DNA of 64,000 bases from Styela clava (taxonomy: Eukaryota). Below, in pieces: positions 31,892-43,304 of this stretch. Numbering within the stretch: position 1 is the stretch's first letter; each line of letters opens with the position of its first letter. A program made the position numbers and the translations under genes. Under the pieces are notes generated by a model. The model was not told where the DNA came from. It saw nothing but the letters and a program-made list of their open reading frames with translations, and made no database searches. Where the stretch lies: positions 11,408,001 to 11,472,000 of the forward strand of contig NC_135252.1 of NCBI RefSeq assembly GCF_964204865.1, in the 5' to 3' direction.

Positions 31892-34800
31892 ATGGACTAC
31901 ACGGTTGTTTTACGGCTTTTAACGTGAGTATATTAATCATGTAATTTTCCACCCAACATCAGAATGTCTTACTGTAAATAACGTGCCATTTTTCGAACAT
32001 TGTTCGTCGTATCTCTTCGAAGCTGTAACTATCAGGGGTTTATAAAAACAGACTTAGTGATATATTCTTTTTTTTTCTACATTTTCTTTGCACGTATGCA
32101 CTTTTTAGCGTGTGCTATGTGCCTTTGGTCTGAACAATGACCTGAAGAGTTTACGTATGGCGCTACTCTACGGGCAACTATATACCCCGGTTCGGCTGTC
32201 CTCATGTAAATCCTCAAATTCGAAATTACCTACGTTGCGAACACAGCGTAGGCAGGGTAGCTATTAGATGTCATTAGATGCTACACTCACAACTAATTCA
32301 ATCCATTATCTAACTTTATCATGACAACACCTGTCGTTCAAAGGAATTCTGATATTTTTTGTTTGTCTGTCTGATGTAAACACTAACATTTGCTTCTTAT
32401 TTTTGCCAGCTTCATTCTTTTTGGAGGAGTGCTCGGTGACAACAACGGTAGCCCCGGATTAAGTGAGTATCGAATTAGATTACTTGTTAGTATTTGTTAG
32501 AATATCTATAGTGTCATCACAAGGAGTGATCATATCGTTGTTGGCACGGCCGAATTTATTTAAAAATTGGCCAGATGGGAGCATGCGTAAGGCACTGGAC
32601 AAGAAATTTGATACTGAATACATTTGTTATTGTTAAGTTCTATGGTTTCGTATTTGGCTCATTTCAAATATGTAACTATTTCAGGTACGGATGCTTGTGT
32701 GGACCAGCAGGATTGGTGTCCATCAATGGTACAGTATTGCAAAGAACACGAAGTCATGGTACCAATGTGCCGAAAAACATGTGGTAAATGTGATGTAAAG
32801 CCAACAATTATCCCTGGAACGCCAAACACGGGTGAGGGCGGATTGGGTAAGATTTTTCACGTGCGTTACAATTTTACACTCTCTAGTGCCAGGGTTGAGG
32901 AGTTCATGCCTGATAAATGGTATGTTAGAATAAATAGAATACAGATGCACCAAGTCTTTTTGTAATACTATCATTGTGTCATTGTGTCGTAACCCTACTG
33001 TACTTTCTAACAGGCTGCGGAGCTTTCAATTGCGAACACGATTGTGAGGCGGAAAAGTGCAAATGCAAAAAGGGATATGAACTTCAAGCTGATGAAAGAT
33101 CTTGCAAAGGTAAACTTCTTGCTAATACACAATTTATACTAGTGCAAACTCTTTCTGCTTTTCTCATGGAGTTTTAATACAAACGAAAAGTTGGAGTTCG
33201 TGCCATGGCCTGTGGAAAAACTGAAATTTTGACACCTTTAATTTTCCGAATATATATATATATATATATTGAACATTAGCATTAGAACTAACATACTATA
33301 CAATATTTACAAAGAAATGTATATACAAATAAATTAATTATAATAGGTTTGAATCCTTTTTTATTTTGTCTGTAGAAAATAAAATTTCATAACAGTTTCA
33401 ATCACGCCCATCCATGTTATTAAGCACTTCTTCTACAGTCAGTTCCAATTTAAGTTTTCTGGCTTTGCGAATAACTGGAATTATCTGTTGATTAGTTGTT
33501 GACAATACAGTAGGTAGTCTGTTGCGGTCTCGGGTGCAGAACAATGCTTTTGATATCCGTCAGAGTGGCGACCAATTTTTTATAAATCAAGAAATATGTG
33601 ATCACGTTATAGTGATATATCATAACGCCAACATTATAAAATATATATCGATTTAATTTGAGATATCGTTTTTTACCCAAGAAAATTGTAAAACAGGTTT
33701 ATAGTTGAAACTTATCACAAATACCTCGTCATCGCTGCAATAACTTATCAGGGATGCACTTCATTTGCAGATATTAATGAATGTAACGTTGAGAATCCTT
33801 GCAATGAGACCTCGAAATGCATAAATACAAAAGGATCTTACAAATGCGAACAGACGCGATGCGAAAAAGGGGAAATGCGGTATTTTGAAGGAAAAGAATG
33901 CTGTCGACTTTCTGAGGGTAATTTGATAACCGAGCTCATCTTCCTCCGAGCATTTTTTGTGTATTTTTCTACTAACAACCATCATTGTGTGGTGCATCAT
34001 ATTTGAAATGTTTAGGTTGGTTTATTTGGGAGATTCTGAAGCAGTTGAATTATTCAATCGGTATAATTTTATGCGCAAATACAAATACGTAGTGAGGAAA
34101 AAAATAGAATAAATTAATTGGGGTTTCATCTTATGCTCAATAAATACATTCAGATTTATCCAGTAACTGACACGAAGTCTAGTTCGTAACACGAACTTCT
34201 TTGATTAAAACTTATGTCTGGTATTTTAACAGGCAGGTGCGGACGAAATTCCGCCAATGGCGGTTTCGGTGCTTTCGGCCACGATTCCATAGTGACAAGG
34301 TGGCCCTGGATGGTAAGCTTGCCTAAAATTTAAACAAAATATATTACTGAAATAACATCAATCTGTATTAAAAACAACAAGTTGTTACTATGAGTTGTTA
34401 CTATAAGCCAAAACATGGCGTATATAATTTCTGTTGCTCTTATTCCAGTCTGAAAAATTCGTTTGAATCTGTTGCTAAATCTTCCAACGTCTTGAAAGAA
34501 AAATACATTGGCCCGAATAAAAAGGCAATAGTTTAGCAGAACATTTTCCAACCGCTTATCAATTTCGAATAAATTAACAAAATTTATTAACGGGGAATGA
34601 ATGATATATATCAGAACCGTTATAAGGTCGCTATTCTTCATTATTATTCTGATCAACAAACTTAATTTAAATTTACTACACGAACGAAATATTGCATTGT
34701 TACAGTAACTTGAAATTCAAAATCTTTTTATATTGATTCAAGTCATTGATTACGATCGAAAAAACAAAAACAAGATGCGGAGGGATCGTAATTCACAAAC

Positions 34801-37800
34801 ACTGGGTCTTGGCATCAGCTCATTGTTTCAAGTAAGTGTGAAAACAAAAGTGTGTCTTACTCATATATAATTTCTTCACGTATACATTGCCGTTCGATAG
34901 AGCGAAGGATTTGACACGATTTTAAACACAGAAGAGTCGTGTTTTAAAAATACCAGAACAATTTGCTTGTTTTGAAAATACTTTATATAAAAATAATAGT
35001 CAATTTAGTTTGATAAATTTAGCTGCACTCATCGTATTAATTTATATAAAGAAGATTAAGATGTCGATGTCACATACCAAAGATATTTTTATTTCATCGG
35101 ATCAAGTAAAATAAACAAAATTGATACTTAACTTAACCTTTGCAGGGATGCAAAGCCTACAGATGTCCACGCTTATTTCGGCATAGTAAACACAAAGGAA
35201 CATACAGGAGTTAAGAAATTCTCTCAAGGAAGGAGAGTCAATCGGGTAAACTTTTTCATCTATTATAATCTACATTCGGCACTTATTTCCAACACGTAAA
35301 TTAGTCATAAAAGCTATGTATATTTGAAATTTCAAACTTATAAACATAAATAATTTTGACTGATAGATAAGAATTCATCCCGATTATGACTATCCATCGA
35401 ATGACGTAGCATTGATTCGTCTTACACGAGAGGTCAGATTGTCAAACTACGTTAACGTCGTGTGTTTGCCTCACAACGAACAACCTTCCGAAGGTCAACA
35501 ATGTTATGCAACGGGATACGCCATGTCAAGTAAGTCGGTTTAATAAAAAGTAGGTAACTTATAACTATGAAACCAGGCGTGAACGAAAAGCATTATATTC
35601 GTCGACTTTTAAACAACAATTTAAATGGGATATTCTCGATCATATCTGAACCCGTAGTATGTAATACGACAGTGTATATATAAAAGTTCAATGGCCCTCT
35701 ACGAAAGACACAATTGAATGGCGATTGTGATCATATATCTATCTCTGCTCTTTAATCACCATTGTAAAAGATAATTGATTTTATCCAAAATCAAAAGTTC
35801 GATTTAAAGGGTAATACCAATTTTTCAAATAATATCAACAAAAGACAATATAATTCTGAAAATGGAATAAACATTCTTATTGTTCTTATTTAATATCTTT
35901 TAACATCCTAGTTGATCGTGGTGAAGTCATTCGATGGTTACAACAAGAACCAGTACAAGTTACAAATAGAGGAAGCTGTAAAATGGCGGAATCAAAAAGA
36001 CGTTTGGAAAAAAATATGTTGTGTGTTTCACACGAAAAATATATTAAGCAGGGGGACTGTCAAGGTACTACTAATAATGCAATAGAATGTATGAATTTTC
36101 TGTATAACCAGTATCCGGATCGATAACATCCCAGACTTATTGCCATTTGGAATTTATTTGGCGCACATATGCTCACCAATGAAAAAATGAAGCAGGTCAT
36201 AAAGTTTTCACTAGAATTTGAACTCTTATTGAAATGTTCGCCCATCATCATCAAATACAATTACATTGTAAGTTTTCTGAAAACTTTTGCAACAAACAAC
36301 TTGAGAGGTAGTAGAAAGTTCATATTCTAACAATGAGTTCATTGAAAAGAGTACGTATTTTAGGTTCATCTGGAGGTCCTTTAGTTTGCCAACGTTGTTC
36401 ATCGTGCGATTGGTATGTTGCTGGGTTGGCTTCAGAAGGAAAGGATTGTAACACTGTCAAAAGTGGAAGCGCATTCACAAGTGTATCAATTTATGAAGCC
36501 TGGATACGAAAAATAATTGGAGCTCCGGCAATATCACTAAGAAGTGGTGCTGCTTGCCAGTTTCCAGGGAAAGGTAATTTATGAAATCTGATTACAATAA
36601 ATGGGACTGTGAAAATAATCTAGGCCATAACTTTTTTTATAGCCATGATTACTAGACCCTATTTCTTTTTTGATCATAATCAACTACTTCAATTACTCAT
36701 TTTATTTCAACAACTAACCAAATTTTAAGAATTGCCAAACGTGCGAAACTAAATGACACATTCGATAACACAAGCGGCTCATAATCTCGTCACGTCCAAT
36801 ATATAGAGTCATTCAGTGTGTTATTTCCGTTCAAGGAAATAGGGAAAAACCTTCATGGAACAACTGGGGCGAATGGTCCAAGTGCACAGTTACATGTGGT
36901 ACAGGAACATCAGTTCGCGAGCGTTCATGCGATGGAGGAAATGCAGGAGATGACGGGTGCGTGGGTAGTATGCAAGAATCAAAAACATGTTCAGTTAACG
37001 ATTGCCCAGGTAATTATTAATTTTGCGTCGTTTTTCTTTCTTTCGTCATTGTATAGTGGTGTAGGAAATAAACATAATAAAATACAAACACGATTTAACA
37101 GCCAACGAAAAGATTTAATTCAAGTTGCAAGCTATGCAGTTTACATTCGGTATCATATTTCTACAATGATATGGACAGTGGATCTGAGATAATAATTCTT
37201 AAAATGTTCATCATTCACTCTAATGCAATAATGTTTCAGTTATAAAGCATTGTAACATTTTGAATAAAAAAGCCAAGATACATTAACTGACAGAAACCAC
37301 GTCATCTACAGACCCCAATCAAATTCGACTAAACATTTGGGGATATTCGACATTTTACTAGGTTGGTCGGATTTCGGAGAATGGAGTTCGTGTTCTGCCA
37401 CATGCGGTGGCGGATCTCGCGAACGAAGCAGAACCTGCAGGGGAAGTAAAATTGGAAACAGAGACTGTCCTGGCGATAGGCTTGAGATTGAGGTTTGTGT
37501 TGTATTGATATATCTTCTTAACAACTTTACAATTCCGCAAAAATCTCGAGAGACTACATAAATCCTAAATGAAATGTTTAGTAAATAACAAATTACTGGT
37601 TAGCTGTGGTTCGGTATTAACAGCCATCAAAAGGAATGTGAATTGCAGCGCATTATTAGGCAAGTATTTTAAGTTGATTACACCCCCATTTGATTACTAA
37701 TCTCCTATGTTCCTTTAATAGGTTGTTGACTTTTCGGAGGTTGTTTTGACTTCGTCGCCAGACGAATCTCAAAATTGTTACAAATTATAAATATTTTAAA

Positions 37801-40800
37801 AAGTCAAATTCGCTTAAAAAAACATTTCATTGTTTCAGAAATGTAATGATGTTCCTTGTCCAAAATGGACTCGCTGGGGTAAATGGTCGAAATGTAGTGT
37901 GACATGCGGAAGGGGGCGACAATCATCACAGAGGCAATGCGAAAATGGTGAGATTGGGGACAGAGGATGTGGAGGAAAGCATACTAAAAACAAAGCCTGC
38001 AGAAGACGTGAGTCAGTGATATAAACCAAATACTTAATAGAACATGCTGAAACTTCACCCAGTAAACATTCATTTCATTTTGATTTCATGATACCGTTAA
38101 ATAATTGACCATAATTGACTAAAATATCAGGATTTGTCCAAAATATATTCGAACTGGAGTGCAAAGACTGCCATTTTCAATACAGTTGCTGTAAGAGTGC
38201 AAATTATCCCCAATTGCAAATTTAGATATTCATTTTATGCAATCTTGCAAGATTTCTTGCAAGAAGGCAAATATTGAGAAATTTCATATTTATGAAATAA
38301 AGTTTCATCAAACTAGACAAATTTTAAATGGTAATTTTGTACAGCTAAATGTCCGTCTTGGAGCAATTGGACATCATGGTCAGAATGTTCAACAACCTGT
38401 GGTAACGGGATTAAAACAGCCACTCGAGATTGCATGACTGGAAAAAAAACTTCGAAGAATTGTGAAGGAAATTCCACCAAAACACAAACATGCAATACAG
38501 AAGATTGTGAGGGTAGGATAAAATAAATGTCTCCATATTTTAAAAAGATTCATGTTAATTCACTATTAAATAAAAATAATATTTTAGTAGTTTCTCAGTA
38601 AACAGTCGGTAATCCATGTTTTTGTATTTGATATAGATAGATCCATTCGTCTCAATTTACTTTCAGGTTACGTTATAGGTACAATAAATGGTGTTTAAAA
38701 TCCTTGAGACATATTTATGTATAATCTGTTTTTTAAAGGATGTGCAAAGTGGTCAGAATGGACAGCATGTACCAAAACCTGCGGCGGCGGACTCCAGGAA
38801 AGAAGTCGGACTTGCACATCAGACTCTGCAACTCAGGAAGAAAGTGTTTGCAATGATAAAAAGTGTCCCATTTTTTGGAGTGATTGGGCAAACTGGACAG
38901 AGTGCAGTGTTTCATGTGGATCTGGTCAAGAAACAAGAACCAGAACGTGTGAAGGTGGTAAGCCAGGCGATCCAGGATGTCGTGGAACAACTACAAACAA
39001 CAGACAGTGCAACCTTGGAGAGTGTCCTTCTATCCCAAAATGGTCGGCATGGGGGCAATGGAGCAATTGTGATGCTGTTTGTGGAAGAGGTTTTAAAATA
39101 AGAGAAAGGTTAAAATATATGGTTTAGTTTTGAAAAAATAAGCAGCTACCAATGATATTATATTTATATATCCCCTGGCCACAACGAATGGCAAAACTAT
39201 TTCATCATGCGACATCGTGTCACAAATTTATTTTTGGCAGAGTACCTCGAAATATATCTAAATATATATATATATATAGAAGAATAAAAAATGGATGATA
39301 TCAATTGAAGTTACATATTATATGGAGGTTGTGTTGTGTGATTCAGAGAAGACCGTATTTGAGAAACTGATTTCACCAATGTCGCGATCAATGTTAGCAT
39401 AACAGCGACAATTTATATTGCATGAAAGACTATTAGATCGATGATACTATAGAAAATCATCAAGTGAATAGAATCATGAAAAAAAGTTATCAATGGATGC
39501 AAAAAATGTTGATATTTACATGAAATTATTTTTACAGGGTATGCGATGGTGAATCATGTCCTGGTATGCCATTTGAAGACAAAGATTGCTTTGTTGAATG
39601 CGAAACAAAAGGTATCATAATTGTATTAATAGTATAGTGAAACATATATCAATAAACCTACGTCCATCAATCTTGCCTAATATTTTAATTCATTATTTAT
39701 GGAAGTAAGTATCACGTCTAGAGCATTTTTTTTCAATATCATTATTTTGTGGTATGCCTAATTTTTTTTTTGTGTTGTATGTCAGATGTTTTCAATATCA
39801 TATTCGTTTGCCCGTTGGCCTATTTAAATCCCTGCCAGGAAAAAAATGCCATCTATTGTGATATTTTCAGAAGTGTGCTCGGAACTTGTGGACCATATTC
39901 TCTATTGTGCAATGAGCGCTGCTTGGTGCACAATTCAGCCAGAATTTATGGTGGGAAGATGCGATAAAACATGTTGTCATGAAGAATATCGATTTGGTAA
40001 GTTATTATGTTCTGATAATACCATTTCCCTCGTCACAAAGAAGTTATATTATCCTGCGATCTATATTTTGCACAAGCAAAGTTCAAAATCTGACGTCATA
40101 TTTATGTCATGACGTCTGTCATTATAATTAGCTGGAATATTCCTGTACCTATTCATTTTTACAACAAAAGTTTTCATCAAATAAGTCAAAGAGCTATCTT
40201 ATCTGAAGTAAACATCAAGCAACATGGCAGGATCCAGAAATAAAAATATTATGTTCACTATGTTCCTCCAACCTAAATACTGCTAACAGTTTATTGATGT
40301 AAAATAAATATATTTCTTTTATGTTCTAGCCTTTTCAGAATGGTCACCATGGTCTGAATGTACCGAATCCTGTGGCACGGGTTATATGACAAGAAGGAGG
40401 CGATGCACATACCCATCTCTATGTGCAAAATTTAACGCCCCACTCGAAGAAACCAAAAAATGTAACACTCATTCATGTTCCGCTCGTTTTCTCCAAGAAA
40501 TGTGTACTGCGTCATGCGGTGGAGGAATTCGCCACCGTAGAACCCTGTGTGATGGAGTGGAATGCATTGGCATGAAGTTAGTATCCGAACCATGCAATAC
40601 GCATTCATGTACGAGTTCGCTTTCACTTTGGAGTGAGTGGAGTCCTTGTTCACAAAGTTGTGGTATGGGGTCAAAGCAAAGAGAAAGAACTTGTTCAGGA
40701 TCTCCATCATTTTGCAATGAACAGCTTGAGCAAATAGAAGAATGTATAATTACAGAATGTAACGGAACGTGGTCTCAGTGGCAACCTTGGGGACTCTGCT

Positions 40801-41391
40801 CTGTGAAGTGCGGGATTGGAACTATTAAGCGATTCAGGTAATACAATTTGCATAAGGTATAATATACTCCAAAAAATTCTAATATGAAAACATAATGATA
40901 TTTTTAATTTTCTTGTAGATCTTGCGTGGAAGGTAATTGTGTAGGATCTAATGAAGAAGAAGAAGCGTGTGTGACGTTTGATTGCCCGACAGGTAAATTC
41001 ATAAGTATTACACAAAAACATTTATTACAGAAAAAGTCAAGAGACATTATAAAATTTGAGCAGAACAGTAAAAACACTTTGTTGACTATTCTGAAAATTT
41101 TTGATAGCTGAAATCGGAAGTACATTTTCGTCACCTCAATAGAAATTTAAAAATCGAGTATCAGCCGACTAAATCTTTTAATTCATATTTGATATTCCAA
41201 ACTAATCGCGCAGAATATAACACCCTATTTTAACTTTACTATTAAATGATGCTATATTCTGTATTTTCACAGTCACGGGATGTGAAGACGAATCCTCAAT
41301 GCGACTTCTCTGTCCGTTATTAACAAACTATTGTGACAATGCCTACACTCAGTATGCCTGTAGGAAATCTTGTAAACTATGTGAAGAATAA
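31892..41391 (+). CDS. G4: secreted mosaic serine-protease homologue (SP-ShKT-EGF-cbEGF-atypical S1A domain-7xTSP1-ShK variant-4xTSP1-ShKT), ~1065 aa
   Basis: 21 exons: 31892-31923, 32410-32462, 32685-32846, 33014-33109, 33771-33917, 34233-34312, 34743-34831, 35146-35245, 35367-35529, 35912-36064, 36364-36573, 36836-37009, 37362-37492, 37839-38007, 38345-38512, 38739-39108, 39538-39611, 39871-39996, 40330-40837, 40919-40992, 41273-41391. Total 3198 nt, in frame. Signal MDYTVVLRLLTFILFGGVLG; DINEC; ASAHC, DVALI and GDCQGSSGGP; terminal ShKT ...CRKSCKLCEE*. Confidence 0.9.
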
Positions 41392-42882
41392 TTTCGGGAA
41401 ATCGTTTTTTTCACTTAAATACGGGGAAATTTTTTTGATCATGATAATCGGCATGTGCAATATAGCGGAAAACGAACAAAGTGAGAAGCCCGTATTTGAA
41501 AATAGGGTCAAATATATGATACACAAAATTTAATTGGTTGTGTGGTATATTGTCAGCACCATGTCCCCTATTCCGCAATATAATGCTAAGGGCATCCATA
41601 GATATTCCCTAAAACGGCACATGCCTTTGTTGTATTAAATATGCTTTGGATTGTACCCAGAATTTCGACACGATTATAACCTGTTGTTGAATCATTGACT
41701 TAGCAAAGCGCTTGAGCCCACTTTCACTGTATATCGCCTAGTGGTAGAACCCCTCAATTTCTTGTAGGGCCCACAAAATCGTTTCGACGCGTAGTAAGTG
41801 GGTGGATAGGAACTTAGGACAAATTCGGAAACATTCATATGGCCGCAAGATGTAATTCCCAAAATGGGTTGCACTCGCACTGTCGTATCGTATCAGTATT
41901 TTCTATTGCATTGTTCACTTTTTTCTAATAATGCATTAAACATATTCAGGATTCTGTTATAACTACTGTTTTGTAATTATCAATATTTTTCTGTGGTTAT
42001 CGCTATATGTGTACTTTTTTGATTGCTTGTGAATAAAATTAAAAAATGTGACCCAACTACTTTACTGTGCCAATTGATTGTGGCACAAAAACTTGCCCTG
42101 AATGACAACAAATGATCGTTAGTCTGTTGCATTCAACTTCTGATTAATAATACCTGGGCCGGATTACCCACCAGTCCAGACCAGACACGGGCGTTTGAGC
42201 CTACCTAGCGGGTCTAATATTGTTTCAGTACTTTTAAGAATGCCACATACATTTGTGATATATTTTTGCATATCCCAAAGTTTTCCATCAGTCTCGGGAG
42301 TCATTTCCCATGGAGTTTCATTTATTGTTCTGCAAATGGCAGCTATCATTTATCAATGGTTGTTGGACTCAGTCGGTGCTTGAACCTACACCTCACCATT
42401 AAAATTACACCACAGTGAAAAAGCCAACAATGCTCAAATATATGGACACGAGGATAAAAACAAAATATTTTTCCTACAATTTCCCCAAAATCATATCGTG
42501 AAGAGAGCTAGAACTAAGAAACTTGTCAGTGCCAGTACTCAAACTGTCCTAGTTTTCCCATGTCTGGTGACGATGATTCAATCGTATAGTGCAGCGTTTC
42601 CCAATCTATCTATGTTCCGCGGAACACTAGTGTTCGACTAGTGTCTTCCGAGTGTTCCGCGAAAAGGAATCAAAAAATCGTCTACATTGGTCGCCATGGC
42701 GATGTAGAGATCGTGAAGTTGTCGCTTAACTGACCGTTCAATTTCGCGTCACCTTCGGCCTAAAGCGGACGAACTAAGGTAGTGGTAAGGTAAGCTAAAG
42801 TAAGTGGTATTTTCTTTAACCGCTTTTTGACAGTTAAGTTCATTATTATTTTTACAGCAATATTTTTGGTTTTGCTATAAGC

Positions 42883-43304
42883 AAACAAGAGAGCTACGCA
42901 CAAATATATGGACACGTTAGACCAGAGCGAATCAGTCCTTACCGGTACCTTTGACGCTACCGGTACCCTCAAAAAAGTTCTGAATTTCCAGTAGCAAGAA
43001 TTTTGCAGAATCAAAACGTACAGCCAGTCATGACACTGACTAAAATCCGTCTTCCCATGGATAAAAAATAATACAGCAAAATTTTTGACGAAATATCAAA
43101 TTTCATAGAATTCACGCAAAATTTTGAAATAAATAAAAGTAATAGCCTTCTAGCGAAAAAATTAATCTTTAACCACTGAAATATTCAAAGCAATTGGTCC
43201 AGTATTCGAAGAGAAAAGCGACTTTTTAAAAACGTGTCAAAGAACAAGAACAACAACAACAACATAATATTGAAACGATCGTTATGGCCACTAAACGTGT
43301 CCAA
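42883..43304 (+). mobile_element. DINE-1/HINE-like interspersed repeat, copy C
   Basis: aaacaagagagctacgcacaaatatatggacacg ... (aac)n ... gaaacgatcgttatggccactaaacgtgtccaa; matches copy B. Confidence 0.7.

Follow-up and report, generated by a model that had tools for sequence, protein, structure and literature searches.

The 64,000-nucleotide stretch of Styela clava DNA analyzed here (the window; contig NC_135252.1, positions 11,408,001 to 11,472,000; AT-rich and eukaryotic in character) carries the gene G4, which corresponds to LOC120341783 (RefSeq XP_039266278.2, 1065 residues) and whose last protease exon matches this protein, and no other, at 100%. Judged from its sequence, the S1A protease domain of G4 keeps the catalytic triad and has lost both the Ile16/Asp194 activation switch and residues that build the S1 pocket. 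This domain is probably a zymogen-locked pseudoprotease (probability roughly 0.6), inactive or nearly so, that would serve outside the cell for binding or as a scaffold. G4 itself is a real, spliced and expressed gene with an intact frame.

Catalytic residues, activation switch and transcripts

The domain belongs to the S1A proteases by its best matches, plasma kallikrein in a phmmer search (E=3.6e-30) and the matriptase zymogen 5lyo in Foldseek (TM 0.76). Chymotrypsin numbering was taken from motif anchors by convention rather than from an aligned chymotrypsin sequence. The triad motifs named in the first-pass annotation (ASAHC, DVALI and GSSGGP) are all present on the plus strand (Table 1), and besides His57, Asp102 and Ser195 the domain retains Ser214, Gly193 and all ten family-invariant cysteines. 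The activation site is lost, as had been proposed. Relatives from Ciona and Clavelina read CGxSxTNGG-R-[IV]-V-G-G...RWPWM in this region, and a gap-free alignment sets NGG-F-G-A-F-G of G4 (positions 15 to 19, F-G-A-F-G) against NGG-R-V/I-V-G-G, so that F15-G16 stands where R15-I16 is expected. An alternative N-terminus arising by cleavage between Ser and Ile (IVTRW) was rejected because it would lie 4 residues before Trp27 rather than 11. The other half of the switch, Asp194, is Ser in every allele observed and is encoded by TCA, three base changes away from GAY. The remodeled S1 pocket first noted as Gly189, S-E-G at 214-216 and S-A-F-T at 226-229 was borne out, with further substitutions at G142A, Y172E, A183V and G184S and an Asp at position 190 next to Gly189. 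Of the features of an active S1A enzyme, G4 has the triad and has neither a cleavable Ile/Val16 site nor an acidic residue at 194. It also falls outside the classical definition of a serine protease homologue (SPH), in which at least one triad residue is substituted.

A wrong splice model or a dead gene copy is a very improbable source of this pattern and is refuted at the transcript level. Contigs of all four runs used (X5, X6, X8 and X9, from two studies) join 36064/36364, the junction that had been singled out for checking, as well as 33917/34233 and 34312/34743. Every predicted G4 intron is skipped by contigs at GT..AG ends, and in three runs a single contig spans the entire protease region. 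The spliced frame contains no stops and is identical, letter for letter, to XP_039266278.2. No hidden exon or splice form restoring IVGG or GDSGG, an outcome that the first-pass annotation had raised against its own interpretation, occurs among the contigs of the four runs. The intron-skipping contigs are the basis for expression and give neither tissue nor level, the RNA status of the runs being a guess; runs X1 and X4 read through introns and were left out of this evidence. Neither a stop nor a frameshift was found in any allele (RNA contigs, second assembly). The 26 variant places among RNA alleles and the 25 differences in the second-assembly allele (P0004) leave residues 57, 102, 189, 190, 194, 195, 214-216 and 226-229 unaffected, and the combination of kept triad and lost switch is constant across four RNA samples and two assemblies.

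Alignment indicates that the loss in G4 is targeted to the activation domain and the S1 site and is wider than first noted. Styela, Ciona, Clavelina and marine sources supplied the 29 domains of the family alignment. R/K-[IV]xxG, D189 and D194 within GDSGG are present in all 23 canonical members, and a triad without the switch occurs only in G4 among the 29. Of the 45 columns in which 22 or more of these 23 rows hold the same residue, G4 differs at 11. Nine of these changes fall within the activation domain or the S1 site (G18, G142, Y172, A183, G184, D189, D194, G226 and Y228), so that 9/13 non-Cys invariant positions are changed there versus 2/22 elsewhere (Fisher p=4e-4, with classes drawn post hoc). 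At positions 142, 172, 189, 194, 226 and 228 the decayed states are shared with clear pseudoproteases. Faster evolution of G4 is also confined to the protease domain, which is 34.6% identical to canonical members compared with 46.3% among those members; the corresponding figures for the N-terminal modules, 35.0 and 37.1%, reveal no acceleration.

In S1A chemistry, a Gly exposed by cleavage after F15 cannot fill the Ile16 pocket, and without an acid at 194 there is no partner for the new N-terminus or for a substitute Lys or Arg. Changes at G142, G184, D189, G226 and W/F215 additionally take away pocket hinges and walls. Based on F15-G16, Ser194 and the altered pocket residues, G4 is likely locked in a zymogen-like state and would be without meaningful proteolysis. 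One study puts the shift of trypsinogen to its active form through Ile16 packing and the Ile16-Asp194 pair at about 10^6-10^7-fold, and notes that the S1A exceptions it describes (single-chain tPA and C2a) still depend on an acid at 194 (PMC13194640). Thrombin D194A loses several thousand-fold in rate, and thrombomodulin does not restore it (PMC6889508). The triad in G4 may persist through structural constraint, a ligand-binding role or simple lag, and the TSP1, EGF and ShK modules would provide adhesion to matrix or cell surfaces. The first-pass annotation had offered two readings, a zymogen-locked pseudoprotease or an enzyme activated without cleavage. This pair stands, now with a tested precedent in PRSS23 and with mis-splicing and pseudogenization excluded by the contigs and the open frame.

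The structure model proposed at the outset was made with AlphaFold2. The G4 domain has a mean predicted local distance difference test score (pLDDT) of 78, with confident blocks around His57 and Asp102 (94 and 97) and low values at residues 189-198 (61) and in the 217-226 loop (56). A canonical Ciona control with a matching alignment reached 83 and 87 in the same two regions. The low values fit a disordered activation domain. Foldseek ranks zymogen and active structures almost equally for G4, which confirms the fold and does not distinguish the state, and a search of the ESM Atlas returned generic trypsin clusters only.

Kinship, selection and alternative readings

A search of the S. clava genome with the C-terminal half of the G4 protease domain gave at least 72 matches; the second exon of G4 and a weak hit were set aside, leaving 70 scored catalytic exons. 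Sixty exons have both D194 and S195, two have D194 only, four have lost both, one carries a stop and three retain S195 without D194. Among the last three only G4 also has H57 and D102, both of which are lost in L045 and L046 on contig C16. The expectation that typical homologues lose Ser195 instead is thus too simple for this family, as these two paralogues retain Ser195 yet have lost His57, Asp102 and the switch. At least nine of the 70 exons besides G4 are non-canonical. The same search revealed no second close copy of G4 above 56% identity. Outside S. clava, no orthologue with S194 and the triad was found in protein searches (one of which was limited to the best 120 of 850 matches, many of them multi-domain TMPRSS9) or in a metagenome scan of 47 loci with patterns biased to conserved family words, an absence that is weak evidence; what these searches did return were other tunicate members of the family. 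From the sequences collected, pseudoprotease formation appears to recur in other hosts of the family.

In three trees G4 groups with the C16 pseudo-paralogues L045, L046 and L058 (support 98.5/96 and 92.7/92, and an SH-like approximate likelihood ratio (SH-aLRT) of 97 in a quick LG+C20 tree), and L041, another very long branch, falls outside this group. G4 and the C16 paralogues share VTN.xC and EGKxC stretches, and Asp190 is common to G4 and L046. A phase-1 intron in codon 193 is common to G4, these paralogues, the upstream neighbors and G2, a canonical neighbor within the window. The canonical sequences nearest to G4 are those of the Q8T3A0 group (36-39% identity), and without the pseudo-paralogues the placement of G4 does not resolve. 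If the clade of G4 and the C16 paralogues is real, loss of the switch preceded decay of the triad in the sisters. The switch would then have been lost first, in an ancestor common to G4 and three C16 paralogues, and the sisters would later have shed parts of the triad, and at least one of them its TSP1 tail, while the triad of G4 did not decay. The suggestion that G4 is a cofactor or decoy for G2 found no support. The two protease domains are 33% identical, and G2 is one of three canonical neighbors rather than the nearest relative or a sister. A G2-specific decoy role was rejected, as nothing ties G4 to G2 specifically.

The C16 paralogues (L075-L080; G000:C16:12.13, 12.24 and 15.98 Mb) comprise three ShK-EGF-EGF-pseudoproteases lacking IVGG or Asp194 and showing triad losses; the L045 protein ends after the protease domain. 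In L081, L082, L083, L084 and L072 (contigs C1, C9 and C19), Ser195 is replaced by Thr, Glu, Lys, Thr or Asn. Metagenome exons of the family carry GDAGGP (L119-L122), GETGGP (L105/L109/L127) or a fully decayed motif (L114/L116), and Clavelina lepadiformis P0124, a member of the same family with H57S, D102N and S195G that retains D189 and D194, is the mirror image of G4.

Several observations weigh against an inactive, zymogen-locked G4 and the history sketched for it. The residues H57, D102, S195, S214, G193 and G196-P198 and the disulfides C42-C58 and C191-C220 are all intact, and at the average rate over the G4 end branch (1.13 changes per site) the chance that all three triad residues survive is, by a crude estimate, about 0.03. 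In the five aligned pseudo-paralogues, a set chosen as dead, His57 is retained in 0/4 scored, Asp102 in 1/5 and Ser195 in 2/5. Asp190 could replace Asp189 in G4, thrombin D194A retains a formed oxyanion hole and residual activity (PMC6889508), and the low pLDDT of G4 may reflect divergence alone from an alignment of canonical rows. As for the clade with the C16 paralogues, the tree of the N-terminal modules backs it weakly (65/67), the tree tool issued a caution that long branches meet, and L041 independently came to similar states at positions 194, 226 and 228.

Part of this evidence would suit an unlikely alternative, a non-canonical enzyme in which a cofactor, self-association or the substrate orders the active site and Asp190 or Glu215/Ser226 confers a new specificity. 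Both halves of the switch are gone together, and the full triad, Ser214, Gly193 and both active-site disulfides survived a long end branch, whereas the sister paralogues lost them. Precedents come from FAM111A, a trypsin fold that orders its oxyanion hole through dimerization (PMC10920703, in part), and KLK10, described in the accessible text as active though zymogen-like (PMC5551965). KLK10 however retains Asp194, as single-chain tPA and C2a require their acid, and PRSS23, the one tested protein with the pattern of G4, is inactive (PMC13194640). The pocket residues of G4 are moreover altered as in dead paralogues, and the pocket-lining fifth exon is rich in amino-acid polymorphism. It is doubtful that G4 is an extracellular S1A protease still cutting without the cleavage-and-insertion switch or an acid at 194, partner- or self-ordered, its specificity residue having shifted to Asp190.

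Variation within the species bears on another improbable reading, in which the protease domain is a functionless spacer in ongoing decay, the protein is retained for its TSP1, EGF and ShK modules and the triad is an undrifted remnant. Twelve amino-acid-changing and eight silent variants in the domain give a ratio of nonsynonymous to synonymous polymorphism (pN/pS) of about 0.42, not significantly below neutrality (binomial p=0.06, 20 variants). Acceleration specific to the protease domain would fit such decay, as would relatives at later stages (L045 has an in-frame stop within its EGF exon), and if the triad drifted like the other invariant non-Cys sites of G4 the chance of retaining all three residues would be 0.28. 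Yet the losses are non-random, being concentrated in the activation domain, 10/10 invariant cysteines and 20/22 other invariant positions are kept, and all alleles are without stop or frameshift. In exon 35912-36064, amino-acid-changing and silent variants among RNA alleles stand at 8:1, compared with 4:7 in the other protease exons (p=0.03, post hoc), which would reflect either loosened constraint or a binding surface under diversifying selection. The second assembly adds two more changes in this exon, from which the 170 helix and 180s loop next to the S1 pocket are translated.

Gene architecture and locus

G4 begins with a signal-peptide-like N-terminus and has the domain order and CQRC..C.W motif of the tunicate ShK-EGF-trypsin(CQRC)-TSP1 family (Table 1). 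A Pfam search, in which 10 stretches pass, recovered one trypsin domain (PF00089, E=1.4e-40, residues 179-406), cEGF and TSP1 repeats. The ShK label rests on the cysteine pattern and on PF01549 matches in relatives, G4 itself having no ShK match in Pfam; such cysteine-patterned modules occur at the start, within the TSP1 array and at the end.

Table 1. Coordinates of G4, its exons and the paralogue G2 in the window.
Feature	Position	Strand	Content	Basis
Whole G4 gene (LOC120341783)	31892..~41391	+	ShK, EGF, cEGF, S1A domain, TSP1 repeats	spliced contigs of 3.9 kb
ShK-like exon	32685..32846	+	alternative donor 32831 drops 5 residues	contig splice joints
EGF exon	33014..33109	+		contig splice joints, Pfam
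Calcium-binding-type EGF exon and linker	33771..33917	+		contig splice joints
Protease exon 1	34233..34312	+	Cys1, degenerate activation site F15-G16-A17-F18-G19 (34265-34279), WPW	contigs, alignment
Protease exon 2	34743..34831	+	Cys42, His57 in ASAHC (34821-34823), Cys58	contigs, alignment
Protease exon 3	35146..35245	+		contig splice joints
Protease exon 4	35367..35529	+	Asp102 in DVALI (35403-35405), Cys122, Cys136, G140, G142A	contigs, alignment
Protease exon 5	35912..36064	+	Cys168, Y172E, Cys182, A183V, G184S, Gly189 (36052-36054), Asp190, Cys191	contigs, alignment
Protease exon 6	36364..36573	+	Gly193, Ser194 (TCA, 36366-36368), Ser195 (TCT, 36369-36371), CQRC..C.W motif, Ser214, Glu215, Gly216 (SEG, 36432-36440), Cys220, Ser226, Phe228 (SAFT, 36468-36479)	contigs, alignment
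TSP1 repeat exons and C-terminal ShK-like module	36836..41391	+		contigs, Pfam
G2, canonical paralogue	10000..18020	-	same architecture; R-IIDG, D189, GDSGGP	

G4 clusters with three canonical members, namely G2 on the minus strand and two that lie just upstream of and across the start of the window. The activation peptide of G2 (16959-16948, minus strand) reads IIDG here and IIGG in another assembly (P0069), a polymorphism at Gly18. Between G2 and G4 lies G3 (LOC144420832, 26520-28985, plus strand), a spliced gene of 279 residues with the order ShK-TSP1x3-ShK and no protease domain. An older model (P0004) joined G3 to G4, and the contigs keep the two genes separate. A further TSP1-repeat gene is located at 52983-55263 on the minus strand, and the stretches 25000-26060, 29690-29860 and 42880-43000, with high depth, many contigs and loose ends, are likely interspersed repeats.

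Comparison with known systems

The closest counterparts in architecture are the tunicate ShK-EGF-trypsin-TSP1 proteases, among them the 'putative coagulation serine protease' of Ciona intestinalis (Q8T3A0/P0096), H2ZIH0 of C. savignyi and LOC143446070 of Clavelina, which share CQRC..C.W with G4 and, together with the S. clava neighbors, a common exon layout and the intron phase at Gly193. The canonical members differ from G4 in that 23/23 keep the cleavage site, D189 and GDSGG. No substrate or function for this CQRC family was found in the literature; an expressed sequence tag paper on Botryllus has the Ciona 'coagulation serine protease' among its matches, with no function given (PMC2527998). 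Nor did the literature search, in which subscription papers were mostly not covered, find a paper on the G4 gene or on switch-less ascidian proteases.

Classical S1A homologues such as HGF, protein Z, haptoglobin and insect SPHs offer the likely mode of use for G4, as non-catalytic ligands, cofactors or scaffolds (PMC13194640, PMC11172050, each in part). They are defined by substitution in the triad, unlike G4, and Clavelina P0124 is of their type. FAM111A and KLK10 resemble G4 as trypsin folds ordered by means other than the standard insertion of Ile16. FAM111A, however, is an intracellular protein remotely related by fold and owes its activation to a dimer helix not shown for G4 (PMC10920703), and KLK10 retains Asp189 besides Asp194, a substrate-ordered active site having been proposed for it in the text at hand (PMC5551965).

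Human PRSS23 is the nearest parallel. Like G4 it is a secreted S1 protein with an intact His-Asp-Ser triad and both switch halves substituted (Gln16/Ala194 in PRSS23, Gly16/Ser194 in G4), and the available portion of its description reports no probe labeling, no substrate turnover and a phenotype independent of the Ser (PMC13194640). PRSS23 differs in its 20-23% identity to active enzymes, the lack of a large modular tail and the conservation of its substitutions across vertebrates (PMC13194640, same portion). G4, in turn, has an S1A domain of the classical kind that shares 31-39% identity with its canonical relatives, is located beside three of them and has so far been seen in one species. 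Its placement among tunicate CQRC proteases argues for convergence with PRSS23. The kind of protein that keeps the triad and loses the switch is known since PRSS23, and G4 itself is undescribed.

Annotation based on the triad would label G4 an active protease. If dead, it would have become a pseudoprotease in nature, independently, by the switch-loss route proposed for PRSS23, and in a family where canonical enzymes, the triad-lost and switch-kept P0124 and later stages of decay make the order of loss testable. If G4 is alive, it would be an exception to the requirement of S1A enzymes for an acid at 194 and represent a new route of S1A activation, with the adjoining canonical paralogues as built-in controls. 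The weight of either outcome is limited, since G4 is a paralogue known to date from one species and belongs to a fast-evolving family with many pseudoproteases.

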